Positions 1 through 56,939 of a stretch of DNA of 64,000 nt are shown here, one piece after another; the stretch's first letter is position 1; each line of letters starts with the position of its first letter. Source of the DNA: Gemmatimonadales bacterium (GTDB taxonomy: Bacteria > Gemmatimonadota > Gemmatimonadetes > Gemmatimonadales > GWC2-71-9); NCBI GenBank assembly GCA_048499805.1, contig JASNZF010000004.1, positions 224,067 to 288,066 on the forward strand, written 5' to 3'. The translations under genes and the position numbers were made by a program. The notes below the pieces were generated by a model, which was not told the DNA's origin, did not search any database, and saw nothing but the letters and a program-made list of their open reading frames with translations.

Positions 1-332
1 GCTACGGCTGGCGCGCGGGCAGCCCGGAGAGCTCCGGCATCGGCGGCTTCTACGACGTGCTCGGCCCGAACAACTACGTCGTGGAGAGCGGGTCGTACGC
101 CAAGCTCCGCGAGGTGAGCCTGACCTACAAGTTCGGCAAGATCGCGGGTGTCGGCGACTGGACCCTGGGCCTGGTCGGCCGGAACATCCTCAAGTTCACC
201 AACTACTCGGGCATGGATCCGGAGGTGGGTGTCAGTGGTGGCAACACGGGCTCGGGCCTGATCAACCAGACCGACAACTTCGACATGCCGCCGCTGCGGT
301 CGTTCACCTTCTCCATTTCCACGCGCTTCTAG
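1..332 (+). CDS. SusC/RagA-family TonB-dependent outer-membrane receptor, C-terminal fragment (5' end is outside the window). Identical to the C-terminus of the susC at 3624..6983.
   Basis: In-frame with ORF 57..332. The translation matches the last ~110 aa of the 1119-aa SusC and ends ...FTFSISTRF, with the terminal aromatic residue typical of TonB-dependent receptors. It lies inside the 3043-bp perfect repeat. Confidence 0.85.
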   Translation, partial: YGWRAGSPESSGIGGFYDVLGPNNYVVESGSYAKLREVSLTYKFGKIAGVGDWTLGLVGRNILKFTNYSGMDPEVGVSGGNTGSGLINQTDNFDMPPLRSFTFSISTRF

Positions 333-344
333 GAGCCATCCAGA

Positions 345-2030
345 ATGATGCGATCCATGATCCGATGCGGGGCGCTGGCCGGAGCGGTGTTGCTCGGGGC
401 CTGCGACCTCGCGGTCGAGAACCGAACCGCGCCGGACACGTCGAAGGTGCTGGCGACGCCAGCGGACGTCGAGGCGCTCCTGGGCGGGCAGTTCCTCCGC
501 CACAACTCGTCACTGTACGGCAGCACGGCGAACGTGTGGGGCATGATGAACGTCATGTCGCACGAGAACTTCAGCAGCCTGTCGAACAACTGCCAGGGCC
601 AGCGCGTGGGCATCCCGCGCGCCAGCAATGACAACGCAGTCGGCAACGGCTGCGCCAGCGAGCAGCGCCGGGTGTACTACATCGACGGCGAAGTGGTCCG
701 GGTGAGCTCGAACATCCTGGCCAAGCTCAACACCGCGGGCTTCACCCTGGGCTCCACGGCCCAGGACCAGCGGGCGCGGGCCTTCGCCAACTTCACCCGG
801 GGCGTGGCCCTGGGCTACCTGGCGATGGTCTACGACTCGGCGGCGATCATCACCCCCGAGAGCAGCACCGAGGATCCGGGCCAACTCTCCGGCTACCAGG
901 ACGTGATGACCGCGGCGCTGGCCTCGCTGGACGCCGCCATCGCGGCGGCCCAGGCGCCGGGCACCGGGACCGGGGGCTTCCCGATCCCGAACGAGTGGTT
1001 CGCCAACACCAATGGCGCGACCACGGCGGCGGAGTTCATCAAGATCGTCCGCAGCTACAAGGCCCGGTTCCGGGCCGGCGTGGCGCGGACCCCGGCCGAG
1101 CGGGCGGCGGTCAACTGGGCGGCGGTGATCGCCGATGCCCAGAACGGGATCACGCAGGACATGAACCTCCGGACCGCCACCACCGCCGGCACCCTGAGCA
1201 ACAGCTGGGTGTCCACCTGGTACAGCTACACGACCTGGCACCAGATGGTGCCGTTCATCATCGGGATGGGCGACGTCTCGGGCAACTACGAGGCGTACAT
1301 CGCGGCCCCCCTGAACGACAAGGGCAAGGACGGCGCGTTCTTCATGGTGACGCCCGACCTGCGCTGGCCGCAGGGGGCCACCCGCGCCGCCCAGCAGGCC
1401 GACTTCTCGGTCACTTCCTGCACCGCCGCCGGTTCCATCTGCAAGCGGGACTTCCGCAACCGGCCGACGGCGAACGACCAGGCCTCGGGCCCGACCTGGG
1501 GCTACTCGAACTACGACCACACCCGGTACTACGCCTGGGACAAGAGTGGCTCGGAGCCCGGTGCGACCAACAACACCGGCCCGTTCCCGTTCATGAAGAA
1601 GGCCGAGATCGACATGCTCCAGGCCGAGGGCCTGATCCGGACCGGGAGCTTCGCGGCCGCGGCGGCGCTGATCAACAACACCCGCGTCGGGCGCGGTGGC
1701 CTGCCGGCGATCACGGCGTTCGACAACACCTCGCCGGTGCCGGGCGGGGCCAACTGCGTGCCCCGGGTGCCCAATTCATCGGGCACGGCGGTGGCCTGCG
1801 GCAACATGATGGAAGCGATGAAGTGGGAAAAGCGGATGGAAACCGCCTATACGCACTTCGGCGGGTGGTTCTTTGACCACCGCGGGTGGGGTGACCTGCC
1901 CGAGGGGACCCCGACCCACTGGGCCCCGCCGTACGAGGACCTCCTGGCGCGCGGGTATGCCAAGGAGGCCGTCTACAGCCTCGGGGGTGGCCTGCCCGGC
2001 AGCGCCGCCAAGGGGACGTACGGCTGGTGA
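345..2030 (+). CDS. SusD/RagB-family nutrient-binding outer-membrane lipoprotein (copy 1, identical to 6996..8681)
   Basis: 561 aa. Signal peptide with lipobox LLGAC. Sits 12 nt downstream of the susC stop, which is the canonical susC-susD arrangement. Size and composition fit the SusD family. Confidence 0.85.
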   Translation: MMRSMIRCGALAGAVLLGACDLAVENRTAPDTSKVLATPADVEALLGGQFLRHNSSLYGSTANVWGMMNVMSHENFSSLSNNCQGQRVGIPRASNDNAVGNGCASEQRRVYYIDGEVVRVSSNILAKLNTAGFTLGSTAQDQRARAFANFTRGVALGYLAMVYDSAAIITPESSTEDPGQLSGYQDVMTAALASLDAAIAAAQAPGTGTGGFPIPNEWFANTNGATTAAEFIKIVRSYKARFRAGVARTPAERAAVNWAAVIADAQNGITQDMNLRTATTAGTLSNSWVSTWYSYTTWHQMVPFIIGMGDVSGNYEAYIAAPLNDKGKDGAFFMVTPDLRWPQGATRAAQQADFSVTSCTAAGSICKRDFRNRPTANDQASGPTWGYSNYDHTRYYAWDKSGSEPGATNNTGPFPFMKKAEIDMLQAEGLIRTGSFAAAAALINNTRVGRGGLPAITAFDNTSPVPGGANCVPRVPNSSGTAVACGNMMEAMKWEKRMETAYTHFGGWFFDHRGWGDLPEGTPTHWAPPYEDLLARGYAKEAVYSLGGGLPGSAAKGTYGW

Positions 2031-2128
2031 TCACCGCCGACGCCGCCCGCCGGTCGCGACCGGCGGGTCGGCGCCACCCGGCCGGCCGTGCAGACGGTCC
2101 TGGCCCTTCCACTTTCATGGAGTGCGTA

Positions 2129-2977
2129 ATGCGACGCCTTTTTCGACTCTCGGCATTGGCTCTGGCCCTGGGCGCTTCGACCGCCTGCCGGCCCGAGACG
2201 ATCATCGAGACTGAAGACATCCCGACGGCGGGCATCCGGTTCGTCAATGCGGTGCCCGACACCTTCGCGCTGGACTTCCGTCCGGTGGACATCGTGGAGA
2301 ACACCCACTTCTACTCGGTGGGGTTCCGCAGCACGACGCTGCTGTACTACAAGAATGCGCGGGCCGGGCAGCGGCAGTTCAAGATCTTCCTGGCCAACCC
2401 GAGCCTGACGGCGCCGGCGGCGGAACAGCAGGCCATCGCGAGCACGGTGGTGGACGAGCTGAACCTGACGCTGGAAGCGGGGAAGAACTACACGGTCATC
2501 ATCTGGGGCTACATGCGGCCGGGCTCGACGCCGGCGAAGCGGGTGACGGTGCTGGAGGACAATCCGGCGGATCCGGGGAGCCAGGTGGCGCTGCGGATCG
2601 TCAACGCGGCCGCGGACCTGGGCGCGGTGGACGGCCGGTTCTACCCGAGCACGGGCACGGCGCCGGCCTCGCCGAACTGGGCGAACGTGGCGGCCCTGAC
2701 GGCGTCGGCGTACGTGAACACGGCGCCGGGCGCGATCAAGGCGAACGTGCGGCTGGCGGGCGGGACGACGGCGCTGTTCACCGACCCGACGCTGCCGGCC
2801 GGGATTGCGGAGACGATCGACATCGACGGCGCGCCGGGCAGCACGCGGGCGGGGACGGGGATGTCGGGGTTCGTCTTCCCGCGGTCGGTGGCGGGCAGCC
2901 GGGCGACGAACTTCACCACGCCGGGGATGTTCTGGGTGTGGGATCGGCGTCCGCCGCGGACCTGCGCGCTCTGCTAG
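2129..2977 (+). CDS. DUF4397-like surface lipoprotein (copy 1). The annotated ORF starts at 2027, but the probable start is the ATG at 2129.
   Basis: The internal Met gives MRRLFRLSALALALGASTAC, a lipoprotein signal. Repeated [IL]R[FI]VNA.PD...DF/RIVNAAADLGAVD motifs are typical of DUF4397 beta-sandwich repeats. It overlaps the susD stop, consistent with a SusE/F-like accessory position. Confidence 0.5.
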   Translation: MRRLFRLSALALALGASTACRPETIIETEDIPTAGIRFVNAVPDTFALDFRPVDIVENTHFYSVGFRSTTLLYYKNARAGQRQFKIFLANPSLTAPAAEQQAIASTVVDELNLTLEAGKNYTVIIWGYMRPGSTPAKRVTVLEDNPADPGSQVALRIVNAAADLGAVDGRFYPSTGTAPASPNWANVAALTASAYVNTAPGAIKANVRLAGGTTALFTDPTLPAGIAETIDIDGAPGSTRAGTGMSGFVFPRSVAGSRATNFTTPGMFWVWDRRPPRTCALC

Positions 2978-3573
2978 GCGGGTCGGCGATCAGCCGCAGC
3001 ACCAGTCGGGCCGCCGGGCACTCGCCCGGCGGCCCGATTGGCATTCGGGGGCTCCGGAGCGGGCCGCCGACGCCCCCCTTGCTGGTCCTCCGTTCCAGTT
3101 GGCTCGTGGCCAGGCAGCGCGACCGGGGGGCTGGACGAAACCTCGCTGGGGCTGTAGGATCAAGGTTCGGCTGAGACAGAGGGTTCTGCGGGTCGTCGCC
3201 GCGCTGGTGGACGATCGTCGGGATCCGAGTGGGGTGGTATTGCTGGGCCGGTCCACGCGGCCGCCCATGCCGGCCCTGTTGTGTGTGGCAAGCGTCCTTT
3301 TGACACAGCCGTGTACCGGGCCGCGTGTCCGTTCGTCACAACCAGAATCCTTCGCGAGCACAAGTTGTTGCTGTACAGGGACTTGCAACGCCCCCATCCG
3401 GGGCATGCTCCCTGCTGTGTTGCAGGTCACCGTATTGTCTCCGCGCCGGGTGACGGGCGCTGAGGCGGCAGGTTTCGTTTCATTGTGAAGCTCACCTCGA
3501 GCCACACGTTTCCCGCCAATTGGCGAGTTCTCCATAGGTTCCAGCGTCACTACCAGGTTTCGTTCGTCCCGGC

Positions 3574-3591
3574 ATGTCGCCGGGGCGACAT
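3574..3591. promoter_or_regulatory. Perfect 8-bp inverted repeat with a 2-nt spacer (ATGTCGCC-GG-GGCGACAT) in the susC leader, 33 nt upstream of the start codon
   Basis: Read directly from the sequence. Candidate operator or 5'-UTR hairpin for the SusC/SusD operon. Confidence 0.35.
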
Positions 3592-3623
3592 CGTTCACCC
3601 ACGAAAGAGGAACACAGGCGACT

Positions 3624-6600
3624 ATGACGACTTTTGAGCGTCCTCGCGCCATCCTCCGCGTGTTGCTGCCGGTGCTCGCGCTGTTCGGCTTCGCGGCCGA
3701 AGCGCACTCCCAGGCGACGTTCCGCGGCAGGGTGCTGACCGAGCGTGGCGAGCCGATTGCGGCCGCGGCGGTTGGCATTGCCGAGCTCGGCATCACGACC
3801 CAGTCCAACGCCCAGGGGGTCTATACCCTGATTGTCCCGGCGGCACGCGTCTCGGGGCAGCAGGTGACCCTGGCGGCCCGGGCGATCGGATACCGGGCCC
3901 GGTCCACGTCGATCGCGCTGGCGGCCGGCGAGCGGACCATCGACTTCACCCTCATCCAGGACATCAACAAGCTGGAAGAGGTGATCGTCACCGGCGTGAT
4001 GGAGGGCGTGGAGCGCTCCAAGGTGCCGTTCGCCGTGGGCCGTGTCACCGCGGAGGACATCCCGGTGGCGGCGGTGGACCCGGTGCGCGCCCTGCAGGGC
4101 AAGGTGGCCGGTGTCCGGATCGCCCAGACGACGGGCTATCCGGGCTCGACGCCGGAGATCCTGCTGCGCGGCCCGACGTCGATCAACGCGTCGGGGCGTG
4201 GCCAGGGCCCGCTGATCATCATCGACGATGTGATCATGAACGTCGGGGTGCTGACCGAGCTGGGCGGCATGGACATCGAGTCGATCGAGGTGGTGAAGGG
4301 CGCCGCGGGCGCGTCGCTGTACGGGACCCGGGCGGCGAACGGGGTCATCACGATCCGGACCAAGCGCGGGCTGACGGGCGGGAATGACGGGGTCCGGTTC
4401 AACGTGCGGACCGAGTACGGCTTCAACGACATGAACATCGACTACGGCATCCCGGTCAACCACCCGCTCGGTCTCGACGAGACGGGCAAGCGGTTCTGCG
4501 TGATCGTCTCCGGGACCCAGCCGTGCTCGCGCACCCTGGACATCAACCGCGAGATCATGCGCCGCAACGCGGTGGCCGCGGACACGATCCGGACCGGCCA
4601 GAGCGTCCTCTACGCGGCCCCGACCGGGACCGAGCTGCGGAACGTCTACCAGGCCAACATCTGGCCGGGCCAGTACTACAACCAGGTCGCCCAGCTGATG
4701 ACCCGTTCGCCCAGCATCCTGACCAACGTCGACGCGACGGGCCGGGTGGGCAACGTCTCCTTCTACGTCAGCGGCAACTACACCGACGAGGCCGGCGCCC
4801 TCACGGTCCTCAACGGGGTGCAGAACAAGCGGGCCCGCGTCAACCTGGACTACGACGCCCGCTCCGACCTCAAGATCTCGGTGAGCACCTTCGCCGACAA
4901 GCTCAACGACGACAACGACGGGTTCAACTTCGGCGGCCTGCTCCGGGGCATGCTCCCGGGCGTCGACCAGCTGATGCGGGACTCGCTGGGCCGCGCCCCG
5001 CTGGTGACCGGCGGCTCGGGCTACCGGCCGACCGGCAACGGCGGCGGCAACCTGGTGTACGGCCCGGAGAACAACATCGCCTACCGCGAGTCGACCCGGT
5101 TCCTGGGCAGCATCACCGCCCGGTACTTCCCGACCGACTGGGCCACCTTCGAGGCCACGGCCGGCTATGACACCCGGGCCCGCCAGGACGTGGACATCAC
5201 CCCGTCCGGCACGCGGTCGACGTCGATCTCGGCGGCGACGAACAAGGGCAACATGTCGATCAACAACTTCCACGACGAGTCGGTGAACGCGGCGCTGTCG
5301 GCCACGTTCCGGAGCCAGCTCGGCGAGGAGTTGAGCGGCAAGCTGAGCTTCCGCGGCCTGTACGACGAGAACAACTTCAACAGCGTCAACACCGCGGGCC
5401 AGGTGTTCACGGTCAAGGACATCAACACGCTGGGCAACACCACGACCAACAAGTCGAACAGCTCCAGCATCACCACGATCAAGAACGTGGGCCTGTTCGC
5501 CGGCGCGTCGCTGGACTACAAGGACCGCTACATCGTCGAGGGCTCGTTCCGGTACGACGGTTCCTCGCTGTTCGGCGCCGGCAACCGCTGGTCGCCGTTC
5601 GGGCGGATCTCGGCGGTCTGGAACGTGGCGCGCGAGCCGTTCTGGAACGTCGGGTTCATGGATGAGTTCCGGCTCCGCGCCAGCCGCGGCACCGCCGGCA
5701 CCACGCCGCCGTTCTCGGCGCAGTACGAGACCTACTCGGTCAGCGGCACCTCGGTGACGCTGGGCCAGGCGGGCAACCGGCTGATCAAGCCGGAGACCAC
5801 GACCGAGGTGGAGGTCGGCACCGACTTCACGCTGTTCGGGAAGGTCGGCTTCGAGGTGACCTACGCGCACGCCGTGACCCGGGACCAGATCCTGCCGGTC
5901 TCGACGGCGGCGTCGCTGGGCTTCTCGACCCAGTGGCAGAACGCGGGGACGCTGGACAACAAGACGATCGAGCTGGGCGTGAACCTGCCGATCGTCAACA
6001 GCAGCACCCTGTTCTGGCAGATGCGCGGGACCTGGGACCGCACCCGGACCCACATCACCGAGCTGTTCGTCCCCGACTTCATCTACTCGGGCGGCACCGG
6101 CCAGGGCACCGGCAGCTTCTTCTACATGACGGCCAACACCGAAGTGCAGAACGGCTTCCCGCTCAACCGGTACGGCAACATCTACGGCCGCGCCTTCTAC
6201 AAGACCTGCGGCGACCTGCCGGTCTCGGTCCAGCCGGACTGCGGCCCGGGCAAGGCGTACCAGCGGGACAGCAACGGGTGGGTGGTCTGGACCGGGGCGG
6301 GGAACAGCATCGGCGACGGCATCACCAAGAACCTGTGGAGCACCACGCTGCCGGCGAGCGAGTCGCCGTGGAACTACGCCCTGACCTGGGGCCACCCGAT
6401 CGTCGACCGTCCGCTGGCGGGCGAGCCGGGCGAGCGGGTGGGCAAGAACCAGATCATCGGCAACGTGTTCCCGGACTTCCGGTTCACGTTCACGAACGAC
6501 ATCCAGTACAAGAAGCTGACGCTGTACACCCTGCTCGATGCCACCATCGGGCACGAGATCAACAACCAGGGTGAGGGCTGGGGCCTGCTGGACCTGAGCT

Positions 6601-6983
6601 CCGCCTACTTCGACCAGGCCGACCAGACGGTCCAGACGGCCAAGCCGGTGGGCTACGGCTGGCGCGCGGGCAGCCCGGAGAGCTCCGGCATCGGCGGCTT
6701 CTACGACGTGCTCGGCCCGAACAACTACGTCGTGGAGAGCGGGTCGTACGCCAAGCTCCGCGAGGTGAGCCTGACCTACAAGTTCGGCAAGATCGCGGGT
6801 GTCGGCGACTGGACCCTGGGCCTGGTCGGCCGGAACATCCTCAAGTTCACCAACTACTCGGGCATGGATCCGGAGGTGGGTGTCAGTGGTGGCAACACGG
6901 GCTCGGGCCTGATCAACCAGACCGACAACTTCGACATGCCGCCGCTGCGGTCGTTCACCTTCTCCATTTCCACGCGCTTCTAG
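3624..6983 (+). CDS. SusC/RagA-family TonB-dependent outer-membrane receptor (full length, 1119 aa)
   Basis: Signal peptide. N-terminal carboxypeptidase-regulatory-like domain (FRGRVLTERGEPIAAAAVGIAELGITTQSNAQGVYTL). TonB box/plug (EEVIVTGV...IESIEVVKGAAGASLYGTRAANGVITIRTKRG). Long beta-barrel ending in ...STRF. It is followed 12 nt later by susD. Confidence 0.95.
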   Translation: MTTFERPRAILRVLLPVLALFGFAAEAHSQATFRGRVLTERGEPIAAAAVGIAELGITTQSNAQGVYTLIVPAARVSGQQVTLAARAIGYRARSTSIALAAGERTIDFTLIQDINKLEEVIVTGVMEGVERSKVPFAVGRVTAEDIPVAAVDPVRALQGKVAGVRIAQTTGYPGSTPEILLRGPTSINASGRGQGPLIIIDDVIMNVGVLTELGGMDIESIEVVKGAAGASLYGTRAANGVITIRTKRGLTGGNDGVRFNVRTEYGFNDMNIDYGIPVNHPLGLDETGKRFCVIVSGTQPCSRTLDINREIMRRNAVAADTIRTGQSVLYAAPTGTELRNVYQANIWPGQYYNQVAQLMTRSPSILTNVDATGRVGNVSFYVSGNYTDEAGALTVLNGVQNKRARVNLDYDARSDLKISVSTFADKLNDDNDGFNFGGLLRGMLPGVDQLMRDSLGRAPLVTGGSGYRPTGNGGGNLVYGPENNIAYRESTRFLGSITARYFPTDWATFEATAGYDTRARQDVDITPSGTRSTSISAATNKGNMSINNFHDESVNAALSATFRSQLGEELSGKLSFRGLYDENNFNSVNTAGQVFTVKDINTLGNTTTNKSNSSSITTIKNVGLFAGASLDYKDRYIVEGSFRYDGSSLFGAGNRWSPFGRISAVWNVAREPFWNVGFMDEFRLRASRGTAGTTPPFSAQYETYSVSGTSVTLGQAGNRLIKPETTTEVEVGTDFTLFGKVGFEVTYAHAVTRDQILPVSTAASLGFSTQWQNAGTLDNKTIELGVNLPIVNSSTLFWQMRGTWDRTRTHITELFVPDFIYSGGTGQGTGSFFYMTANTEVQNGFPLNRYGNIYGRAFYKTCGDLPVSVQPDCGPGKAYQRDSNGWVVWTGAGNSIGDGITKNLWSTTLPASESPWNYALTWGHPIVDRPLAGEPGERVGKNQIIGNVFPDFRFTFTNDIQYKKLTLYTLLDATIGHEINNQGEGWGLLDLSSAYFDQADQTVQTAKPVGYGWRAGSPESSGIGGFYDVLGPNNYVVESGSYAKLREVSLTYKFGKIAGVGDWTLGLVGRNILKFTNYSGMDPEVGVSGGNTGSGLINQTDNFDMPPLRSFTFSISTRF

Positions 6984-6995
6984 GAGCCATCCAGA

Positions 6996-8681
6996 ATGAT
7001 GCGATCCATGATCCGATGCGGGGCGCTGGCCGGAGCGGTGTTGCTCGGGGCCTGCGACCTCGCGGTCGAGAACCGAACCGCGCCGGACACGTCGAAGGTG
7101 CTGGCGACGCCAGCGGACGTCGAGGCGCTCCTGGGCGGGCAGTTCCTCCGCCACAACTCGTCACTGTACGGCAGCACGGCGAACGTGTGGGGCATGATGA
7201 ACGTCATGTCGCACGAGAACTTCAGCAGCCTGTCGAACAACTGCCAGGGCCAGCGCGTGGGCATCCCGCGCGCCAGCAATGACAACGCAGTCGGCAACGG
7301 CTGCGCCAGCGAGCAGCGCCGGGTGTACTACATCGACGGCGAAGTGGTCCGGGTGAGCTCGAACATCCTGGCCAAGCTCAACACCGCGGGCTTCACCCTG
7401 GGCTCCACGGCCCAGGACCAGCGGGCGCGGGCCTTCGCCAACTTCACCCGGGGCGTGGCCCTGGGCTACCTGGCGATGGTCTACGACTCGGCGGCGATCA
7501 TCACCCCCGAGAGCAGCACCGAGGATCCGGGCCAACTCTCCGGCTACCAGGACGTGATGACCGCGGCGCTGGCCTCGCTGGACGCCGCCATCGCGGCGGC
7601 CCAGGCGCCGGGCACCGGGACCGGGGGCTTCCCGATCCCGAACGAGTGGTTCGCCAACACCAATGGCGCGACCACGGCGGCGGAGTTCATCAAGATCGTC
7701 CGCAGCTACAAGGCCCGGTTCCGGGCCGGCGTGGCGCGGACCCCGGCCGAGCGGGCGGCGGTCAACTGGGCGGCGGTGATCGCCGATGCCCAGAACGGGA
7801 TCACGCAGGACATGAACCTCCGGACCGCCACCACCGCCGGCACCCTGAGCAACAGCTGGGTGTCCACCTGGTACAGCTACACGACCTGGCACCAGATGGT
7901 GCCGTTCATCATCGGGATGGGCGACGTCTCGGGCAACTACGAGGCGTACATCGCGGCCCCCCTGAACGACAAGGGCAAGGACGGCGCGTTCTTCATGGTG
8001 ACGCCCGACCTGCGCTGGCCGCAGGGGGCCACCCGCGCCGCCCAGCAGGCCGACTTCTCGGTCACTTCCTGCACCGCCGCCGGTTCCATCTGCAAGCGGG
8101 ACTTCCGCAACCGGCCGACGGCGAACGACCAGGCCTCGGGCCCGACCTGGGGCTACTCGAACTACGACCACACCCGGTACTACGCCTGGGACAAGAGTGG
8201 CTCGGAGCCCGGTGCGACCAACAACACCGGCCCGTTCCCGTTCATGAAGAAGGCCGAGATCGACATGCTCCAGGCCGAGGGCCTGATCCGGACCGGGAGC
8301 TTCGCGGCCGCGGCGGCGCTGATCAACAACACCCGCGTCGGGCGCGGTGGCCTGCCGGCGATCACGGCGTTCGACAACACCTCGCCGGTGCCGGGCGGGG
8401 CCAACTGCGTGCCCCGGGTGCCCAATTCATCGGGCACGGCGGTGGCCTGCGGCAACATGATGGAAGCGATGAAGTGGGAAAAGCGGATGGAAACCGCCTA
8501 TACGCACTTCGGCGGGTGGTTCTTTGACCACCGCGGGTGGGGTGACCTGCCCGAGGGGACCCCGACCCACTGGGCCCCGCCGTACGAGGACCTCCTGGCG
8601 CGCGGGTATGCCAAGGAGGCCGTCTACAGCCTCGGGGGTGGCCTGCCCGGCAGCGCCGCCAAGGGGACGTACGGCTGGTGA
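6996..8681 (+). CDS. SusD/RagB-family nutrient-binding outer-membrane lipoprotein (copy 2)
   Basis: Identical to 345..2030. Lipobox LLGAC. Immediately downstream of the full-length susC. Confidence 0.9.
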   Translation: MMRSMIRCGALAGAVLLGACDLAVENRTAPDTSKVLATPADVEALLGGQFLRHNSSLYGSTANVWGMMNVMSHENFSSLSNNCQGQRVGIPRASNDNAVGNGCASEQRRVYYIDGEVVRVSSNILAKLNTAGFTLGSTAQDQRARAFANFTRGVALGYLAMVYDSAAIITPESSTEDPGQLSGYQDVMTAALASLDAAIAAAQAPGTGTGGFPIPNEWFANTNGATTAAEFIKIVRSYKARFRAGVARTPAERAAVNWAAVIADAQNGITQDMNLRTATTAGTLSNSWVSTWYSYTTWHQMVPFIIGMGDVSGNYEAYIAAPLNDKGKDGAFFMVTPDLRWPQGATRAAQQADFSVTSCTAAGSICKRDFRNRPTANDQASGPTWGYSNYDHTRYYAWDKSGSEPGATNNTGPFPFMKKAEIDMLQAEGLIRTGSFAAAAALINNTRVGRGGLPAITAFDNTSPVPGGANCVPRVPNSSGTAVACGNMMEAMKWEKRMETAYTHFGGWFFDHRGWGDLPEGTPTHWAPPYEDLLARGYAKEAVYSLGGGLPGSAAKGTYGW

Positions 8682-8779
8682 TCACCGCCGACGCCGCCCG
8701 CCGGTCGCGACCGGCGGGTCGGCGCCACCCGGCCGGCCGTGCAGACGGTCCTGGCCCTTCCACTTTCATGGAGTGCGTA

Positions 8780-9628
8780 ATGCGACGCCTTTTTCGACTC
8801 TCGGCATTGGCTCTGGCCCTGGGCGCTTCGACCGCCTGCCGGCCCGAGACGATCATCGAGACTGAAGACATCCCGACGGCGGGCATCCGGTTCGTCAATG
8901 CGGTGCCCGACACCTTCGCGCTGGACTTCCGTCCGGTGGACATCGTGGAGAACACCCACTTCTACTCGGTGGGGTTCCGCAGCACGACGCTGCTGTACTA
9001 CAAGAATGCGCGGGCCGGGCAGCGGCAGTTCAAGATCTTCCTGGCCAACCCGAGCCTGACGGCGCCGGCGGCGGAACAGCAGGCCATCGCGAGCACGGTG
9101 GTGGACGAGCTGAACCTGACGCTGGAAGCGGGGAAGAACTACACGGTCATCATCTGGGGCTACATGCGGCCGGGCTCGACGCCGGCGAAGCGGGTGACGG
9201 TGCTGGAGGACAATCCGGCGGATCCGGGGAGCCAGGTGGCGCTGCGGATCGTCAACGCGGCCGCGGACCTGGGCGCGGTGGACGGCCGGTTCTACCCGAG
9301 CACGGGCACGGCGCCGGCCTCGCCGAACTGGGCGAACGTGGCGGCCCTGACGGCGTCGGCGTACGTGAACACGGCGCCGGGCGCGATCAAGGCGAACGTG
9401 CGGCTGGCGGGCGGGACGACGGCGCTGTTCACCGACCCGACGCTGCCGGCCGGGATTGCGGAGACGATCGACATCGACGGCGCGCCGGGCAGCACGCGGG
9501 CGGGGACGGGGATGTCGGGGTTCGTCTTCCCGCGGTCGGTGGCGGGCAGCCGGGCGACGAACTTCACCACGCCGGGGATGTTCTGGGTGTGGGATCGGCG
9601 TCCGCCGCGGACCTGCGCGCTCTGCTAG
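8780..9628 (+). CDS. DUF4397-like surface lipoprotein (copy 2)
   Basis: Identical to 2129..2977. Confidence 0.5.
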   Translation: MRRLFRLSALALALGASTACRPETIIETEDIPTAGIRFVNAVPDTFALDFRPVDIVENTHFYSVGFRSTTLLYYKNARAGQRQFKIFLANPSLTAPAAEQQAIASTVVDELNLTLEAGKNYTVIIWGYMRPGSTPAKRVTVLEDNPADPGSQVALRIVNAAADLGAVDGRFYPSTGTAPASPNWANVAALTASAYVNTAPGAIKANVRLAGGTTALFTDPTLPAGIAETIDIDGAPGSTRAGTGMSGFVFPRSVAGSRATNFTTPGMFWVWDRRPPRTCALC

Positions 9629-9789
9629 GCGGGTCGGCGATCAGCCGCAGCACCAGTCGGGCCGCCGGGCACTCGCCCGGCGGCCCGATTGGCGCTCAGG
9701 CCCCTGCAGGCGCAGTGCCGGCCGTCCCGCGCTCCACGCCGCGAGCTGGAACGACCGGACTCCCCACGGCGGCGACAAAGGAGTCGTCC

Positions 9790-52279: not shown

Positions 52280-52572
52280 TGCGATACGAAGTCCGGCTCG
52301 AGGCCGATCCCTCGATGGCACCCGCCATCGAGGCCTACATGCGTGGCACCCACATTCCCGAGATCATGGCCACCGGCTGCTTCCAGCGGGCCCACTTCGA
52401 CCGGGCGGAATCGGGGGTGTTCCGCACCACCTACGTGGCAGCGACCCGGGCCGATTTCGACCGCTACATCGCCGAGCACTTCGCCCGGTTCCGCGAGGCG
52501 TTCCTGGTCCAGTTCCCGTCGGGCATCATTCCCGCCCGGGAGCTGTTCACTGAACTGGAAGCGTGGCCCTGA
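52279..52572 (+). CDS. DUF4286-family protein (97 aa)
   Basis: MRYEVRLEADPSMAPAIEAYMRGTHIPEIMATGCF...FRTTYVAATRADFDRYIAEHFARFREAFLVQF matches the DUF4286 pattern (MIxYxVxVxVDxxIExEWLxWMxxEHIPxVMATGxF). The start overlaps the GNAT stop (TGATG). Confidence 0.65.
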   Translation: MRYEVRLEADPSMAPAIEAYMRGTHIPEIMATGCFQRAHFDRAESGVFRTTYVAATRADFDRYIAEHFARFREAFLVQFPSGIIPARELFTELEAWP

Positions 52573-52573
52573 G

Positions 52574-53461
52574 GTGGCACGATCATCCCGGAAGGCCGCG
52601 TCCCCCACCCCCACCCACCGTTCCCCCCGGGTCCGGCGCTCGGCCGAGCCGCCGCCGCCTCGTCCGAAGCTCAAGCGCAAGGCGTACGAGCAGGAGCTGG
52701 AGCGGCTGCAGGGGGAGCTCGTCAAGCTGCAGTACTGGGTCAAGGAGACCCGGGCCAAGGTTGTGGTGGTGTTCGAGGGCCGGGACGGGGCGGGGAAAGG
52801 TGGGGTCATCAAGCGGATCCTGGAGCGGGTCAGCCCACGGGTGTTCCGGGTGGAGGCACTGCCGGCGCCCGATGAGCGTGAGCGCAGCCAGATGTACATG
52901 CAGCGGTACATCTCCCGTCTCCCTGCCGGCGGTGAGGTGGTGATCTTCGATCGCAGCTGGTACAACCGGCTGGGGGTGGAGAAGGTGATGGGGTTCTGCA
53001 CCGACCAGGAGTACCGGGCGTTCCTGCACGACTGCCCCTGGCACGAGGCGGAGATGATCGAGTCGGGGATCCACCTGGTGAAGTACTGGCTGGATGTCAG
53101 CCCCGAGGAACAGACCCGGCGGTTTCGCGAGCGGATGACCGATCCGCGCAAGATCTGGAAGCTCGGTCCGATCGACCTCGAGGCCCACCGCCGGTGGTGG
53201 GAGTACACCGCGGCCCGAGAGGCGATGTTCGCGGCCACCGACACCGAGGTCGCGCCCTGGTACGTGATCCCGAGCGACGACAAGCGCCGGGCCCGGATCG
53301 ATTGCATTGGCCACCTCCTGAGCGTGCTACCCTATGCCGACCTGACCGGGGGAAAGGTGCCCGCCCGCCTGCCGGCGCGGCGGCCCAGGCCCCGGGGAAT
53401 GCGGGAGTCGGGGCATCGGTATCGGTGGGTGCTGGGTGGGGAGGTGAGAGGTGAGAGGTGA
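52574..53461 (+). CDS. ppk2: Polyphosphate kinase 2 (PPK2 family). Probable GTG start 1 nt after the DUF4286 stop.
   Basis: PPK2 core (KLKRKAYEQELERLQGELVKLQYWVKETRAKVVVVFEGRDGAGKGGVIKRILERVSPRVFRVEALPAPDERERSQMYMQRYISRLPAGGEVVIFDRSWYNR...) with Walker A GRDGAGKGG. The ORF track begins at 52343 but is out of frame with DUF4286 there. The last 11 codons are read from the GGTRAGA repeat. Confidence 0.8.
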   Translation: MARSSRKAASPTPTHRSPRVRRSAEPPPPRPKLKRKAYEQELERLQGELVKLQYWVKETRAKVVVVFEGRDGAGKGGVIKRILERVSPRVFRVEALPAPDERERSQMYMQRYISRLPAGGEVVIFDRSWYNRLGVEKVMGFCTDQEYRAFLHDCPWHEAEMIESGIHLVKYWLDVSPEEQTRRFRERMTDPRKIWKLGPIDLEAHRRWWEYTAAREAMFAATDTEVAPWYVIPSDDKRRARIDCIGHLLSVLPYADLTGGKVPARLPARRPRPRGMRESGHRYRWVLGGEVRGER

Positions 53462-53515
53462 GGGGTGAGAGGTAAGAGGTAAGAGGTAAGAGGTAAGAAG
53501 GGAGAAGGGAGAAGT
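53430..53515 (+). repeat. Purine-rich heptamer array (GGTRAGA)n overlapping the 3' end of ppk2
   Basis: ggtggggaggtgagaggtgagaggtgaggggtgagaggtaagaggtaagaggtaagaggtaagaagggagaagggagaag. Confidence 0.8.
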
Positions 53516-53666
53516 CTGCCGTAGGCCTGGCGCGGGGGGGGGGCGTGGCGTGGTTCGGCTGGCCTTGCGGGGGGTCGGGCCGGGCGGTAGCCTCCTCGTG
53601 CGATTCGGCCGGCTCCCAGTCGCCGCCCCGCCATCGTTCCGCGCACCTGCCCCAGGGAACTCGCCC

Positions 53667-56600
53667 ATGTCCGCCGATCTCTGCGACGTCATCCGCGGCA
53701 CCCTCGGCGACTCGTACCGGGTCGGCGCGGAACTGACGGGCGGGGGGATGTCCCGGGTCTATACGGCGCAGGACCTGACTCTCGACCGGCGGATCGTCAT
53801 CAAGGTGCTCCCGCCGGAGTTGTGCGGCGTGATGAACGTCGAGCGCTTCAAGCGCGAGATCCGGGTGGCGGCCGGCCTCCAGCATCCCCACATCGTCCCG
53901 GTCCTCAGCACCGGCGAGATGGAGGGCATGCCCTACTACACCATGCCGTTCGTGGAGGGAGAGACGCTCGGGGAGCGGCTCCACCGGACGGGGCCGCTGG
54001 CCCCGCGGGAGGCGATCGGCATCCTCCGCGACGTGGCCCGGGCACTGGCCTACGCCCACGACCGGCAGATCATCCACCGGGACATCAAGCCGGACAACAT
54101 CATGCTGTCCGGGGGCAGTGCGGTGGTCACCGACTTCGGCATCGCGAAGGCGATCAGCCTGTCGCGCGACGTCTCCGGTGGCCACACCCTGACCCAGATC
54201 GGGACGGTGATGGGCACGCCGGCCTACATGGCCCCGGAGCAGGTGGCCGGCGATCCGTCGCTGGATCACCGGGCCGACATCTATGCCTTCGGCTGCCTGG
54301 CCTACGAGGTGCTGACGGGACGGCCCCCGTTCGTCGAGGCGTCGATGCACCAGATGTTCGCGGCGCACCTGTCCGCAGTCCCTGATGAGCTGGAGGCCGT
54401 GGCGCCCGGGGTGCCGGGGTCGTTCGCGGCGCTGGTGATGCAGTGCCTGGCAAAGCAGCCGGCCGAGCGTCCGCCGTCGGCCCATGTCCTCCTGGACCGG
54501 ATCGAGATGCTCACCAGCGGGGGGGAGCTCGCGCTGGCGGCCCCCGCCACGCCCGGGCGGGGAAGGGCCATCCCGGTGGGATCGGGTGCCCCGGTGGCGC
54601 TGCCCCGGATCCTGTCCACCCGGGCCGGACTGTGGGTCGTGCTGCTGCTGGTGGCGCTCGCCAACCTGGTGCAGACCACCCTCGACGAACCACTCGCCAG
54701 GCTGACCGGGGTGCTCGCCCGGCGCGACGCGGTGTCCCGGGCGATGCTGGTGCTCGAGTCGGGGGTGCCATTCGCGGGCCAGGACATGACCAGCACGCTC
54801 GGCGCCTACAGCGCGACCGTGGCGTACTTCTTCCTCTTTCCCGCGCTGCTCGTGGCGATCGGCGTGGCGCTGGCCCGGCGCCCCGCCGTGTCGGCGCTTC
54901 GCACCCTGGTGGTGGCCGTCGCCTGCAACTACGGGATCAGCCTCCTGTTCTTCCTCTTCTTCCCGGTGGCGGAGCGATGGTCGGTTCCCGAGTCGGGCGC
55001 CACCCTGCTCTCGAACCGCTGGAGTGTCCGGCTGATCGAGTGGGTGCGGCCGATGAGCGGGCTGGACAACAGCTTTCCCAGCTTCCACGTCTCGCTGATG
55101 GTGGTCGGGGTCCTGCTCTGCTTCCTGTTCGGGCTGCGGCATCGCTGGGTGGCGGCCTTCGGCGGCCTGGCGGTGATCCTGTCGACCTACCTGCTCGGCA
55201 TCCACTGGATCGCAGACATCCTCGCCGGCCTCGCCGTCGGCGTGATCAGCGTGGCGGTGGCGGCGCGGTTCGAGCGCCGGCTCGCGACGGCGGCCCCCTC
55301 GACGCCGCGGCAGGGTAACCCGGTGCGCTCCCTGGCGATCCTGGCGCTGCTGGTGCTGCCGGGACCCCTGGCCGGGCAGAACTCCCTCACCTTCTCGGCG
55401 GTGGCGCTCGACGCCGAGACCCGGCTGGCCGACGACCGCCTGCGGCGCTACCTGGAGGAGACGGCCGGGGTGGCGCTGGTGGCGGAGGATGCGGCGGAGT
55501 ACAGCCAGGTGATCAACTACCTGGCCACCCGGCGCCCGGGGGATGGCTCGTACCTCGCCCGGGTCACCCCCTACGCACTGGTGGCCGCCGAGCTCCTGGG
55601 CGCCAACGTGCAGGTGCTCGGGACCTATGTCAGCGAGGCCACCACTCGCACGACCTACCAGTCCTACTTCGTGGTGGCGCGCGACCGGTTCCCGCGACCA
55701 CCGGAGCTCCAGGACCTGGTGCGGATGCTGCGCACGGCGCCCGCGGCGATGCGCTTCGGGTACCACAGCGAATTCAGCACCTCGAGCTACTTCCTGCCGG
55801 CGCTGTTCTTCCGGGAGAACGACATCTTCGACATGGCGTCCGGCTCCGAGGAGGCGATCGCCATCCGTGCGCGGCAAGTGCCCGGGGGGAGCAGCGACCT
55901 GGTGCGGGCGGTGGCCGCCGGCGACCTGGACCTCGCGGCGGTGTGGAGCGGCACGGTGGCGGGTTTCCAGCAGACCCCGGAGCTCGCGGCGATCGCCGCC
56001 CGGGTCTACTTCGTTCCCCTTCCGGAGATGCTGCCCAATGACCTGCTGGTGGCGGCCGGCGCGCTGGATTCCACGGTCGGGGCCCGGATCCGGGCCGCGC
56101 TGACGGCGATGCCGGACGGGACGATCCGCACCGGGGACTTCCGGACCTGGAAGCACATCAACGATGCCCCGGAGGCGCGCACCGCGCTGGCGAACCTCCG
56201 GTGGCTGGCGCGCGCCGCCCCGGCTCCCGTGACCGTGGATGTCCAGCGTGCCGGTCCCGATCGGACGGCGATTCCCGACGCCTACCTCCTGGCCGTGCGG
56301 CAGGCGGTCCGCCTGACCGGGATGGAGTTCGTCAACTTCGACCGGGACTACCACCGGCAGCAGGACTATGTGCTGACCCTGGCACCATCGCATGACGGCT
56401 CGGTCATCCTGCGCACCCGGATCGTCGGCGCCGATGCGTTCGACCAGGAGTTCCCGATCAGCTTCCGGGACACCGACGGGCTGATGGCCCGGGTCGCGGA
56501 GGTGCTCCGCTCCCGGGTGCACCGGGTGCGCTACCTGTGGCCGTACCGGACCACCCCGCCGACGATCCTGCGCGACATGCCGCTCGATCTCCGGCCCGGC

Positions 56601-56939
56601 ACCACGGTCTCCGCCCGGATGATCCGGTGGCTCGACACCCGCCGGCATGCCTACACCCAGGGCGCCGAGTTCGAGGCCCAGATCGCCGCCGCCGACCACA
56701 GCAAGGTGGAGCTCTCGCCCAGCTTCGTGGAGGCGGCCGATGCCGATGGCTTCGGCTTCAACCCGATGAGCAACATCTCCTACCGGATCATCCTCCCCCG
56801 GGAAGTGGAGGAGCCGCTCCTCTTCCGGATCCTGACGGTCGCGCTGGTGGGCTGCCTGGCGCTGGCCGCGATCGCGGCAATGGTGGACCTGAGGGGAGAG
56901 GCGAGAAGTGAGAAGCAAGAAGCAAGAGGTAAGAGGTAG
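53667..56939 (+). CDS. Large transmembrane Ser/Thr protein kinase (1090 aa) with a PAP2-like membrane domain, a PhnD/SsuA-like periplasmic binding domain and a C-terminal TM anchor
   Basis: Kinase domain (GGGMSRVYTA, VIKVLPPE, HRDIKPDNIML, DFGIAKA, GTPAYMAPE). Multi-TM block with degenerate PAP2 motifs (RLIEWVRP; FPSFHVSL; STYLLGIHWIADILAG). Periplasmic region with PhnD-like pattern (...VQVLGTYVSEATTRTTYQSYFVVARD...AMRFGYHSEFSTSSYFLPALFF...AAVWSGTVAGF...YFVPLPEMLPNDLLVAAGALD). Terminal TM LLFRILTVALVGCLALAAIAAMV. Confidence 0.8.
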   Translation: MSADLCDVIRGTLGDSYRVGAELTGGGMSRVYTAQDLTLDRRIVIKVLPPELCGVMNVERFKREIRVAAGLQHPHIVPVLSTGEMEGMPYYTMPFVEGETLGERLHRTGPLAPREAIGILRDVARALAYAHDRQIIHRDIKPDNIMLSGGSAVVTDFGIAKAISLSRDVSGGHTLTQIGTVMGTPAYMAPEQVAGDPSLDHRADIYAFGCLAYEVLTGRPPFVEASMHQMFAAHLSAVPDELEAVAPGVPGSFAALVMQCLAKQPAERPPSAHVLLDRIEMLTSGGELALAAPATPGRGRAIPVGSGAPVALPRILSTRAGLWVVLLLVALANLVQTTLDEPLARLTGVLARRDAVSRAMLVLESGVPFAGQDMTSTLGAYSATVAYFFLFPALLVAIGVALARRPAVSALRTLVVAVACNYGISLLFFLFFPVAERWSVPESGATLLSNRWSVRLIEWVRPMSGLDNSFPSFHVSLMVVGVLLCFLFGLRHRWVAAFGGLAVILSTYLLGIHWIADILAGLAVGVISVAVAARFERRLATAAPSTPRQGNPVRSLAILALLVLPGPLAGQNSLTFSAVALDAETRLADDRLRRYLEETAGVALVAEDAAEYSQVINYLATRRPGDGSYLARVTPYALVAAELLGANVQVLGTYVSEATTRTTYQSYFVVARDRFPRPPELQDLVRMLRTAPAAMRFGYHSEFSTSSYFLPALFFRENDIFDMASGSEEAIAIRARQVPGGSSDLVRAVAAGDLDLAAVWSGTVAGFQQTPELAAIAARVYFVPLPEMLPNDLLVAAGALDSTVGARIRAALTAMPDGTIRTGDFRTWKHINDAPEARTALANLRWLARAAPAPVTVDVQRAGPDRTAIPDAYLLAVRQAVRLTGMEFVNFDRDYHRQQDYVLTLAPSHDGSVILRTRIVGADAFDQEFPISFRDTDGLMARVAEVLRSRVHRVRYLWPYRTTPPTILRDMPLDLRPGTTVSARMIRWLDTRRHAYTQGAEFEAQIAAADHSKVELSPSFVEAADADGFGFNPMSNISYRIILPREVEEPLLFRILTVALVGCLALAAIAAMVDLRGEARSEKQEARGKR

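Follow-up and report, generated by a model that had tools for sequence, protein, structure and literature searches.

The gene under study occupies positions 53667..56939 (stop codon included) of the window, the 64,000-nucleotide stretch of Gemmatimonadales DNA that was analysed; it lies on the + strand, as do all features given below. The open reading frame 53550-56939 holds an ATG at 53667, from which a 1090-aa product is read that is identical to the database protein P0001. From N- to C-terminus, the fusion protein is made of a kinase, a PAP2-like module, a solute-binding protein (SBP)-like domain, a new domain and a transmembrane anchor. The original prediction had proposed such an architecture from the nucleotide sequence, and the Pfam scan bore it out, the Pkinase, PAP2, PAP2_3 and Phosphonate-bd matches each scoring above the gathering cut-off. 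The AlphaFold2 model has a mean pLDDT of 88.4. Eight hydrophobic segments were detected by hydropathy analysis, TM1 at about aa 320-336 and the others at aa 383-403, 412-433, 472-490, 494-513, 515-534, 552-571 (weaker) and 1050-1074. In the resulting predicted topology, the kinase and a basic tail are placed inside, the PAP2 motifs and the SBP-like region outside; the PhnD-like region is thus assigned, as had been supposed, to the outer side and not to the cytoplasm. It is therefore confirmed, at the level of the sequence, that one gene encodes a predicted active Ser/Thr kinase together with a membrane domain like that of lipid phosphatases and a periplasmic domain resembling phosphonate-binding proteins. 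No description of a kinase/PAP2/SBP-like architecture was found in the literature.

The Hanks-type Ser/Thr kinase domain (aa 18-275, 53718..54491) is cytoplasmic and matches Pkinase (PF00069) over aa 18-275 with an E-value of 2.5e-43 and 148.8 bits (cut-off 31.7). All the catalytic residues could be read in the sequence: K46, E64, H137-R138-D139, K141, N144, D156-F157-G158 and A189-P190-E191. Among these, the beta3 lysine K46, the alphaC glutamate E64, the HRD aspartate D139, the catalytic-loop asparagine N144, the DFG aspartate D156 and the APE motif at 189-191 are kept in 32-33 of the 33 family kinases examined. The kinase is, as judged from profile score and residues, PknB-like and catalytically complete, in agreement with the complete catalytic domain announced earlier. 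The PknB/Stk1 PASTA kinase model NF033483 (PknB_PASTA_kin) gave 276.8 bits against a full-length cut-off of 450 and covered aa 12-286 only, and no PASTA repeat was matched in the fusion protein by the Pfam scan. The protein resembles PknB/PrkC-type receptor kinases in its full set of catalytic residues, juxtamembrane linker, membrane span and extracytoplasmic sensor, whereas in place of PASTA repeats its sensor comprises the PAP2-like domain of six helices, then the PhnD-like fold and the new domain, and lastly a second anchor. The juxtamembrane linker (aa 286-318, 54522..54620) is modelled with low confidence (pLDDT <50 at aa 291-311) and, in the alignments, ends in a conserved 'LLxTRxGL' stub ahead of TM1.

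The PAP2-like six-helix membrane module (aa 319-540, 54621..55286) was delimited from Pfam matches, AlphaFold2 helices, hydropathy and homologue fusions. PAP2 (PF01569) matches aa 464-536 with 38.1 bits (cut-off 27.2) and PAP2_3 (PF14378) aa 383-530 with 33.2 bits (cut-off 27), and the six-helix core is visible in the model. Solved PAP2 enzymes are only marginally similar in sequence (best profile E-value 7.7e-4), and a weak NCBIfam similarity to PgpB, undecaprenyl-diphosphatase and LpxE was found. The three PAP2 motifs were assigned by alignment to the solved PgpB/YodM, PhoN and LpxE structures. Motif C1 (canonically KxxxxxxRP) is a remnant, R461-P462 (55047..55052): in the alignment to B. 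subtilis PgpB/YodM (5jki), the Arg-Pro pair is kept and the lysine seven residues upstream is missing, the position of the YodM lysine being occupied by Val in the fusion protein and by Ser in the family consensus. Motif C2 (PSGH) is present as P471-S472-F473-H474 (55077..55088), with P, S and H found in 69/69 modules and the Gly replaced. Motif C3 (SRxxxxxHxxxD) reads S506-T507-x5-H513-x3-D517 (55182..55217); the Arg is replaced by Thr507 in all members, and H513 and D517 are found in 61/69 modules, their loss being limited to 8 Opitutaceae loci. The PSGH-like and C3-like motifs had both been foreseen, with a third motif described as degenerate; the latter statement has to be restricted, since only the Arg to Thr change is observed. 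The third motif is, according to these alignments, only partly degenerate, and the His474/His513/Asp517 triad is intact. Residues E364, E436, R437, W438, R461, P471, S472, H474 and W514 are invariant in the 69 modules.

The module is followed by a hydrophobic segment (TM7, aa 552-571, 55320..55379), ending in ...LAILALLVLPGPLAG/QNS, that looks like a signal peptide. It is only moderately hydrophobic (hydropathy 1.5-1.6) and modelled with low confidence (pLDDT <50). In related loci in which the SBP-like protein stands alone, N-terminal signal peptides ending in AxA/Q-type motifs are found, and TM7 is homologous to this cleavable-looking signal peptide.

The segment aa 572-848 (55380..56210), predicted to be periplasmic, has a PhnD/AioX-like class II solute-binding fold, on the basis of Pfam and of hhalign and hmmsearch comparisons with E. 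coli PhnD. Phosphonate-bd (PF12974) is matched at aa 591-844 with 49.2 bits (cut-off 27); the TIGR01098 subfamily model gave 31.4 bits (cut-off 112), and the PDB search returned no sequence match to PhnD-family structures. In PhnD, the oxyanion pocket is formed by Tyr47, Tyr93 and Ser127-Thr128-Ser129, whose roles have been described, and an Asp contacts the amine of 2-aminoethylphosphonate (PMC5908839). The corresponding residues of the fusion protein are Y636, Y664, S704-T705-S706 and D792. In the hhalign and hmmsearch comparisons, Y664, S704-T705-S706 and D792 align with PhnD Y93, S127-S129 and D205, while the match of Y636 to Tyr47 is one of local motif similarity only. Conservation among 75 sequences is high (Y636 and Y664, 67/75; S704, 75/75; T705, 74/75; S706, 73/75; D792, 75/75). 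The PhnD-like periplasmic segment of the original prediction is upheld by this pocket and by the Pfam score, and the organophosphonate or oxyanion ligand proposed with it is plausible from the conserved Tyr, Tyr, Ser-Thr-Ser and Asp residues of the PhnD/AioX type.

Residues 849-1048 (56211..56810) constitute a separate periplasmic domain, well folded in the model (pLDDT 88, pTM 0.85), in which a TolB-N/PelC-like alpha/beta half precedes a half rich in beta structure. They gave no Pfam or NCBIfam match and no strong PDB fold match, and this 200-aa C-domain is previously undescribed. Residues D892, H896, D900, R953, R955, W958 and W988 are invariant in it. The domain was missing from the original prediction. 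The predicted C-terminal anchor was recovered at aa 1050-1074 (56814..56888; hydropathy 2.68, model helix 1051-1089) and is present in 48 of 49 stand-alone SBP partners. A short basic tail, read directly from the sequence, closes the protein on the cytoplasmic side (aa 1075-1090, 56889..56936), and the stand-alone partners show a similar one.

The search for the same architecture in other phyla revealed a two-part system. The PAP2-like 6-TM module and the SBP/new domain/TM module co-occur, fused or as adjacent genes in either order, in 71/77 species-representative loci, and five of the six exceptions sit at contig ends. The pair was found in five phyla, in Gemmatimonadota, Acidobacteriota, Verrucomicrobiota, Nitrospinota and Methylococcaceae, all members being MAGs. 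The fused single gene is found in a minority of cases, the system mostly being made of two genes, a point absent from the original prediction. At least 17 independent full-length fusions, from different assemblies, were counted; chance or an assembly or gene-calling artefact as the origin of the fusion is effectively ruled out by them. The cytoplasmic domains carried by the pair are Ser/Thr kinase (32), TIR (21), CHAT (5), caspase C14 (3), SARP/BTAD (2) and a 280-aa domain of unknown type (n = 6). They are attached N- or C-terminally to the PAP2 module or to the SBP protein; since outputs attach at all three places, the two ends of the PAP2 module, as well as the tail of the SBP protein, have to lie in the cytoplasm. 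The PAP2-like module accordingly is predicted to have both ends in the cytoplasm and its motifs in the periplasm. Divergence of the PAP2 and SBP/C-domain parts is tightly correlated (r = 0.89 and 0.86, compared with 0.94 for two domains of one chain), a correlation that could be explained by shared vertical descent alone. In one Opitutaceae clade, the PAP2 site and the SBP pocket are altered together and the TIR-bearing system is retained; this coupled change is a single lineage event.

The neighbours of the gene in the window code for amidohydrolases, a GNAT protein, PPK2, an NMO-like protein and an L,D-transpeptidase. It had been suggested that the downstream nitronate-monooxygenase and amidohydrolase genes may belong to a regulon of the kinase. 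This was not borne out: the NMO-like and amidohydrolase genes are conserved beside 0/84 related loci and the upstream PPK2 gene beside none of them, nor was a third conserved gene found across phyla, so that synteny lends the regulon no support. No ABC permease or ATPase gene of the phnC/phnE type was found in the window neighbourhood or beside related loci.

We consider it fairly probable that the fusion protein is a receptor-type Hanks (PknB-like) kinase whose bipartite membrane/periplasmic module acts as sensor of a phosphoryl- or phosphonyl-bearing ligand. The idea of a sensor coupled to a kinase output was already put forward in the original prediction and gains from the related loci, where the same module is borne by TIR, CHAT, caspase and SARP proteins; the kinase would be one of several interchangeable outputs. 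The first part of the sensor would be the PAP2-like six-helix domain with its His474/His513/Asp517 site facing the periplasm, the second the PhnD/AioX-like fold and the 200-aa domain, held at the membrane by the C-terminal helix, and what was once the second protein's signal peptide would now join the two. The module would bind its ligand on the outer side of the cytoplasmic membrane and, in most lineages, probably turn it over as well; the candidate ligands are lipid head groups and small oxyanions or phosphonates. If, as we assume, the SBP/C-domain part contacts the periplasmic face of the PAP2 domain, the ligand event could change the association state of the membrane module and bring the cytoplasmic domains together, resulting in activation; in the fusion protein, the kinase would trans-autophosphorylate and then phosphorylate further substrates. 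To our knowledge, induced proximity is the sole activation route common to PknB-type kinases, TIR NADases, caspase/CHAT proteases and ToxR/SARP-like membrane-bound activators.

The intact catalytic triad, as aligned, fits a true enzyme as well as a sensor. The protein might then be a regulated envelope enzyme, in which the PAP2-like domain is a lipid-phosphate phosphatase or phospho-head-group transferase, the SBP-like domain delivers or accepts a polar substrate or product and the cytoplasmic domain regulates the enzyme or is merely anchored by it. Its substrates could be undecaprenyl diphosphate, phosphatidylglycerophosphate, lipid A or a phosphoethanolamine/phosphonolipid head group. Several observations speak for such an enzyme: a triad and a C1 Arg kept in 61/69 modules, the alignment of the motifs to the solved PgpB, PhoN and LpxE phosphatases, the weak NCBIfam similarities mentioned above and an SBP pocket retaining the phosphonate-binding residues and the amine-contacting Asp of PhnD. 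We nevertheless regard it as unlikely, as one metabolic enzyme could hardly account for the alternate coupling to kinase, TIR, CHAT/caspase and SARP domains, the 8 Opitutaceae loci have lost the nucleophilic His and the Asp and yet keep the system with its TIR, and the phosphate-holding C1 Lys and C3 Arg of PAP2 enzymes are missing in all members. Compared with the PAP2 phosphatases (PgpB/YodM, BcrC, LpxE, PhoN) and PAP2_3 proteins, the family shares the six-helix core, the outer-face active site and the aligned C2 His, C3 His and Asp and C1 Arg-Pro; it differs from them not only by the lost C1 Lys and C3 Arg and the replaced C2 Gly, but also by family-specific invariants (E364, E436-R437-W438, D467-N468 and W514) and by the constant presence of an SBP-like partner and the connection to signalling or effector domains.

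Slightly less probable still is a membrane-embedded immune or programmed-cell-death system, in which an envelope sign of phage or another antagonist would set off a TIR NADase, a caspase-like protease or a kinase as effector; the window gene would represent the version with a kinase. It shares its mechanism with the sensor explanation and differs in biological role. The TIR, CHAT, caspase C14 and Ser/Thr kinase outputs match the repertoire of known defence systems, the PADLOC models for the PD-T4-6 and mad6 kinases, SAVED-TIR, ThsB and SAVED-CHAT match the respective output domains, and the TIR domains inspected have the conserved Glu of the 'WxxxE' stretch, which we take to be catalytic. However, for the six family proteins submitted to PADLOC-DB 2.0, only generic kinase, TIR and CHAT domains were matched, and none of the PAP2, SBP or C-domain parts. 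The SARP/BTAD variants point away from suicide and towards transcriptional control, the window neighbours are ordinary metabolic or cell-wall genes, and synteny holds steady within lineages, which sets the loci apart from mobile defence islands. The loci examined had neither phage nor mobile-element genes beside them. An ordinary transport-type phosphonate/phosphate binding protein accidentally joined to a kinase, as might be suggested by the Phosphonate-bd match and by entries annotated at source, for instance, as 'ABC-type phosphate/phosphonate transport system substrate-binding protein', is effectively refuted by the independent fusions, by a TIGR01098 score (31 bits) far under its cut-off, by the lack of an ABC permease or ATPase gene beside any locus and by a binding domain that always bears the C-domain and the membrane anchor.

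The sensor explanation has partial precedents. AioX, of the Phosphonate-bd family, is a dedicated signalling binding protein, and the AioX/ArxX/ArrX-AioS systems likewise employ a periplasmic PhnD fold with a conserved Tyr/Tyr/Ser/Ser oxyanion pocket for signalling and not for transport (PMC5908839). However, AioX is free in the periplasm and signals to a histidine kinase, whereas the fold described here is held in the membrane by an anchor, continues into a new domain, has a PAP2-like membrane protein as its partner and is connected to Ser/Thr kinase, TIR, caspase or SARP outputs. The actinobacterial GlnH/GlnX/PknG system, in which a Ser/Thr kinase is stimulated by an SBP, also forms one sensing chain that runs from a periplasmic binding protein through a polytopic membrane protein to the kinase (PMC8050422). 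GlnH, however, belongs to SBP_bac_3 and binds amino acids, the periplasmic domains of GlnX are four-helix bundles instead of a PAP2 fold, the kinase PknG is soluble, and no sequence relationship to the fusion protein goes beyond the kinase fold. Like ToxR/CadC-type activators, the SARP/BTAD variants tether a cytoplasmic DNA-binding domain to a periplasmic sensor; the fold matches, however, are partial and weak, the DNA-binding domain is of SARP type, and no homology to LysP, CadC or ToxR is evident. Co-sensing by membrane proteins that resemble enzymes or transporters is an established concept, for example in LysP-CadC.

The presence of the module with different outputs in five phyla suggests, from sequence comparison, an undescribed envelope sensor. 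More tentatively, the PAP2-like proteins and the anchored PhnD-like/C-domain proteins may form a new class of transmembrane receptors, pattern or stress sensors derived from enzymes, that would read a phosphorylated envelope or periplasmic molecule and, by induced proximity, switch on immune-type effectors (TIR NADase, caspase/CHAT), a kinase or a SARP activator tethered to the membrane; the fusion gene would be its single-chain kinase version, possibly cut by signal peptidase at G571/Q572 into two chains. If so, bacteria would have in this class a functional equivalent of surface sensing in the style of receptor kinases or TLRs.

The signal is known for few bacterial Ser/Thr kinases, and GlnH/GlnX/PknG is the one characterised binding-protein-stimulated system in the review (PMC8050422). 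The proposed sensor is compact and self-contained, encoded by one or two genes, with a clearly defined predicted pocket and enzyme-like site that can be mutated. As it is naturally wired to five or six outputs, the identification of one ligand would give, across five phyla whose members are mostly uncultured, the signal for the kinases, TIR proteins, caspase-like proteases and SARP regulators. The same finding would establish the PAP2 fold in signalling and give the PhnD family a second branch used for signalling, next to AioX. Should the TIR and caspase versions turn out to serve defence or cell death, they would exemplify the control of these effector types from outside the cytoplasm.

The kinase gene of the window (53667-56939, forward strand) starts with an ATG at position 53667 inside the ORF 53550-56939 and encodes, from that start, a protein of 1090 residues. 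A database protein search retrieved an identical entry (P0001, to which residue numbers refer), and the members of its 90% cluster are named as proteins of Gemmatimonadales bacterium MAGs. The G+C content of the window is about 70%. A promoter scan at the gene revealed no promoter-like sites, and two terminator-like matches, both located within coding sequence, were judged to be due to chance. Four Pfam matches exceeded the curated cut-offs: Pkinase (residues 18-275, E = 2.5e-43), PAP2 (464-536, 38.1 bits), PAP2_3 (383-530, 33.2 bits) and Phosphonate-bd (591-844, 49.2 bits). The combination of kinase, PAP2 and phosphonate-binding domains proposed from the DNA is therefore real, and the kinase is intact.

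Eight hydrophobic segments were found by hydropathy analysis: a first one after the kinase (about residues 320-336), five in the PAP2 region (383-534), a weaker one resembling a signal peptide (552-571) and a strong C-terminal helix (1050-1074) that leads into a basic tail. The original prediction placed the PhnD/AioX-like binding domain (SBP, 572-848) in the periplasm, and three independent lines bear this out. The charge distribution of the protein is positive-inside; stand-alone SBP homologues start with classical signal peptides ending in AxA/Q-type sites; and, among relatives, the output domain (the attached cytoplasmic domain) is joined to either terminus of the PAP2 module, which requires both ends of this module to be cytoplasmic. 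At the C-terminus, 48 of 49 stand-alone SBP homologues carry a TM helix with a basic tail. The AlphaFold2 model, calculated from a 66-sequence alignment, had a mean pLDDT of 88.4 and a pTM of 0.67; confidence dropped under 50 in three places only, namely the activation loop, the juxtamembrane linker and residues 541-571. In this model the PAP2 part forms six long helices, H474 opening the fourth and H513 immediately preceding the sixth, the arrangement known from canonical PAP2 enzymes. PDB sequence searches with the SBP and the following periplasmic C-domain (849-1048) gave nothing useful.

With residues 300-1090 as query, 107 proteins were matched, comprising kinase-, SARP/BTAD- and TIR-PAP2-SBP fusions, stand-alone SBP proteins (about 550 residues), kinase-, BTAD- or CHAT-PAP2 proteins (also about 550 residues) and TIR-SBP proteins. 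Gene context showed that the genes of the split forms are adjacent, frequently overlapping, and arranged in either order. A pattern-based scan of one genome per species, which may be incomplete, gave 77 family loci, every one from a MAG, in Gemmatimonadota, Acidobacteriota (Thermoanaerobaculia, Sulfomarinibacteraceae, Vicinamibacterales and Terriglobia), Verrucomicrobiota (Opitutales), Nitrospinota and Methylococcaceae. According to family-built HMMs, the PAP2 module is fused or adjoining in 71 of them; five of the other six lie at contig ends and the last, L026, is apparently a real exception. The output domain is a Ser/Thr kinase at 32 loci, TIR at 21, CHAT at five, caspase C14 at three, BTAD at two, an unknown domain of about 280 residues beyond the anchor of the SBP protein at six, and undetermined at three; these entries total 72 for 71 loci, L085 having both CHAT and the ~280-residue domain. 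An identical repertoire was seen in 55 PAP2-module representatives that had been sampled independently. The 368 proteins at E <= 1e-30 obtained with profile A4 in the representative library are not a family size; this profile has mixed N-terminal columns, its matches past about rank 95 are plain kinases, and only the top matches at the PAP2 position were used. Alignment A3 was checked motif by motif. By sequence reading, a WxxxE-type Glu was present in six of seven TIR domains inspected, the seventh having the Glu without the Trp.

The ~280-residue cytoplasmic domain follows the SBP, C-domain and TM anchor in Acidobacteriota (L041:3959-6397, L057:3860-6520, L061:3887-6547, L063:3851-6328, L065:3881-6547, L085:3734-6343 and L004:3494-5995). 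Its copies, 26-64% identical to one another, accompany a bare PAP2 protein or stand beside a CHAT-PAP2 protein. Searches against Pfam, NCBIfam and PDB sequences gave no match for this domain, and it is probably another output domain of unknown kind.

Single-chain fusions like the window gene occur at three of the 71 species-representative loci, and the fused form is a minority. At seven split Gemmatimonadota loci (L015, stop at 2803-2805; L017, stop at 3896-3898; L018, L020, L021, L062 and L076), the kinase-PAP2 and SBP ORFs share one frame, and all that lies between them is one stop codon (TGA in six cases, TAA in one), about ten codons ahead of the signal-peptide Met. Fusion or fission thus takes one point change only, and a single stop loss would explain fused genes such as that of the window. 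An AxA-like site is kept after the internal signal-like segment (LAG/Q, 569-572), where signal peptidase might split the fusion into the two ancestral chains.

The family PAP2 profile matched solved phosphatases, B. subtilis PgpB/YodM (E = 7.7e-4) as well as E. coli PgpB, PhoN and LpxE, and motif correspondences were fixed by aligning it to these proteins. Throughout 69 modules, E364, E436-R437-W438, R461, P471, S472, H474 and W514 are invariant, and 61 of the modules have H513 and D517. Motif C1 keeps Arg-Pro without the Lys, C2 reads PSFH and C3 reads ST-x5-H-x3-D without the Arg. In PAP2 enzymes the nucleophile is the C3 His; the C2 His donates the proton and the C3 Asp acts as relay. This triad is intact in the window protein, and the third motif, originally described as degenerate, is so in its missing Arg but not in its His and Asp. 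By profile and triad, the membrane domain is a member of the PAP2 superfamily, but it lacks two defining residues out of the set of three cationic phosphate ligands; R437 might act as a stand-in for them.

Alignment of the SBP with E. coli PhnD (hhalign and hmmsearch) equated S704-T705-S706 with S127-T128-S129, Y664 with Y93 and D792 with D205, and TPY636A resembles PDY47A of PhnD at the motif level only. In both PhnD and AioX, the oxyanion is bound by these two Tyr and two Ser together with a His, and Glu177 and Asp205 of PhnD contact the amine of 2-aminoethylphosphonate (PMC5908839). Conservation of the predicted pocket positions Y636, Y664, S704-S706 and D792 ranges from 89 to 100% over 75 family sequences, and the C-domain displays an invariant cluster (D892, H896, D900, R953, R955, W958 and W988).

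An Opitutaceae clade of eight loci (L064, L067, L070, L071, L073, L074, L077 and L083) carries H513T/N and D517G in C3 together with Y636F, Y654A, T662R, Y664R, S707G and T763V in the binding domain, two of these six positions (Y636 and Y664) being mapped pocket residues; the C-terminal TIR domain is retained. Although they amount to a single lineage event, these coupled changes suggest that the PAP2 site and the SBP pocket serve one ligand-related function, that turnover is dispensable for the system and that the Opitutaceae form is a pseudo-enzyme whose ligand specificity has changed. Between pairs of loci, identity in the PAP2 module goes along with identity in the SBP (r = 0.89) and in the C-domain (r = 0.86), compared with r = 0.94 for two domains on one chain. 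These values fit co-inheritance as a unit, but are in part due to shared phylogeny.

The downstream NMO-like and amidohydrolase (Amidohydro_2) genes had been put forward as possible members of the regulon of the kinase. These genes and the PPK2 (polyphosphate kinase 2) gene adjoin none of the 84 related loci, and a regulon or operon link with any of the three was rejected since the adjacency is not conserved. PPK2 (52343-53461) lies directly upstream on the same strand, which makes a link to a phosphate-related signal tempting. A heptamer tandem repeat at 53441-53514, (GAGGTAA) x 8.3 then (AGAAGGG) x 2.7, covers the PPK2 3' end and the start of the 205-bp spacer before the kinase gene. No other gene was kept across phyla as a third conserved component. 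Elsewhere in the window, positions 1-3042 and 6652-9693 form a perfect direct repeat (3,042 bp, 100% identity), each copy holding the final 332 nt of an ORF for a TonB-dependent receptor, a SusD-like ORF with a weak SusD_RagB match and a DUF4397 ORF; a full receptor gene (3489-6983; Plug, beta-barrel and CarboxypepD_reg) lies between the copies. Either a SusC/SusD-like cassette has recently undergone tandem duplication or gene conversion, or the repeat is an artefact of assembly.

The window protein can be likened to receptor Ser/Thr kinases of the PknB kind, but it falls outside the PASTA kinases; PknB-type NCBIfam models aligned with its kinase domain only. At the Pfam level, its binding domain belongs to the PhnD family, but it does not qualify as a transporter binding protein and resembles AioX in being given over to signalling. 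PMC8050422 lists a single characterised system in which a binding protein stimulates a Ser/Thr kinase, GlnH/GlnX/PknG, whose parts are unrelated to those of the window protein. Full-text literature searches yielded no description of a PAP2/PhnD-like pairing, or of such a pair linked to TIR, caspase or kinase domains.

We propose that the PAP2 and SBP/C-domain pair would be an extracytoplasmic sensor of a phosphoryl- or phosphonyl-bearing ligand, which may be small (an oxyanion or a phosphonate) or else the head group of a lipid, and would regulate whichever cytoplasmic domain is attached. PknB-type kinases, TIR NADases, caspase/CHAT proteases and membrane-tethered activators are all activated by induced proximity or oligomerisation. 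Transduction by this route would be the most economical mechanism, and fits better than a rigid conformational relay because the output domain occurs on either terminus of either protein. The repertoire of TIR, caspase, CHAT and kinase domains and the domain-level PADLOC matches suggest an immune or cell-death role, but PADLOC did not match any part of the sensor, the SARP versions favour a function in gene regulation, and the genes around the loci are ordinary ones whose arrangement stays constant within lineages. A true lipid-phosphate enzyme with a regulatory appendage, although compatible with the intact triad, fits poorly with output swapping and with the pseudo-enzyme clade. A transport-type binding protein or an artefactual fusion is excluded, the TIGR01098 (NCBIfam) score of 31 bits being far under the 112-bit cut-off and transporter genes being absent from the family loci.

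The finding is more interesting than earlier described: as judged from its sequence, the window protein would be a transmembrane receptor whose two-part sensor is novel and conserved and, more tentatively, the family may constitute a new class of receptors that sense at the cell surface, for signalling or for immunity.
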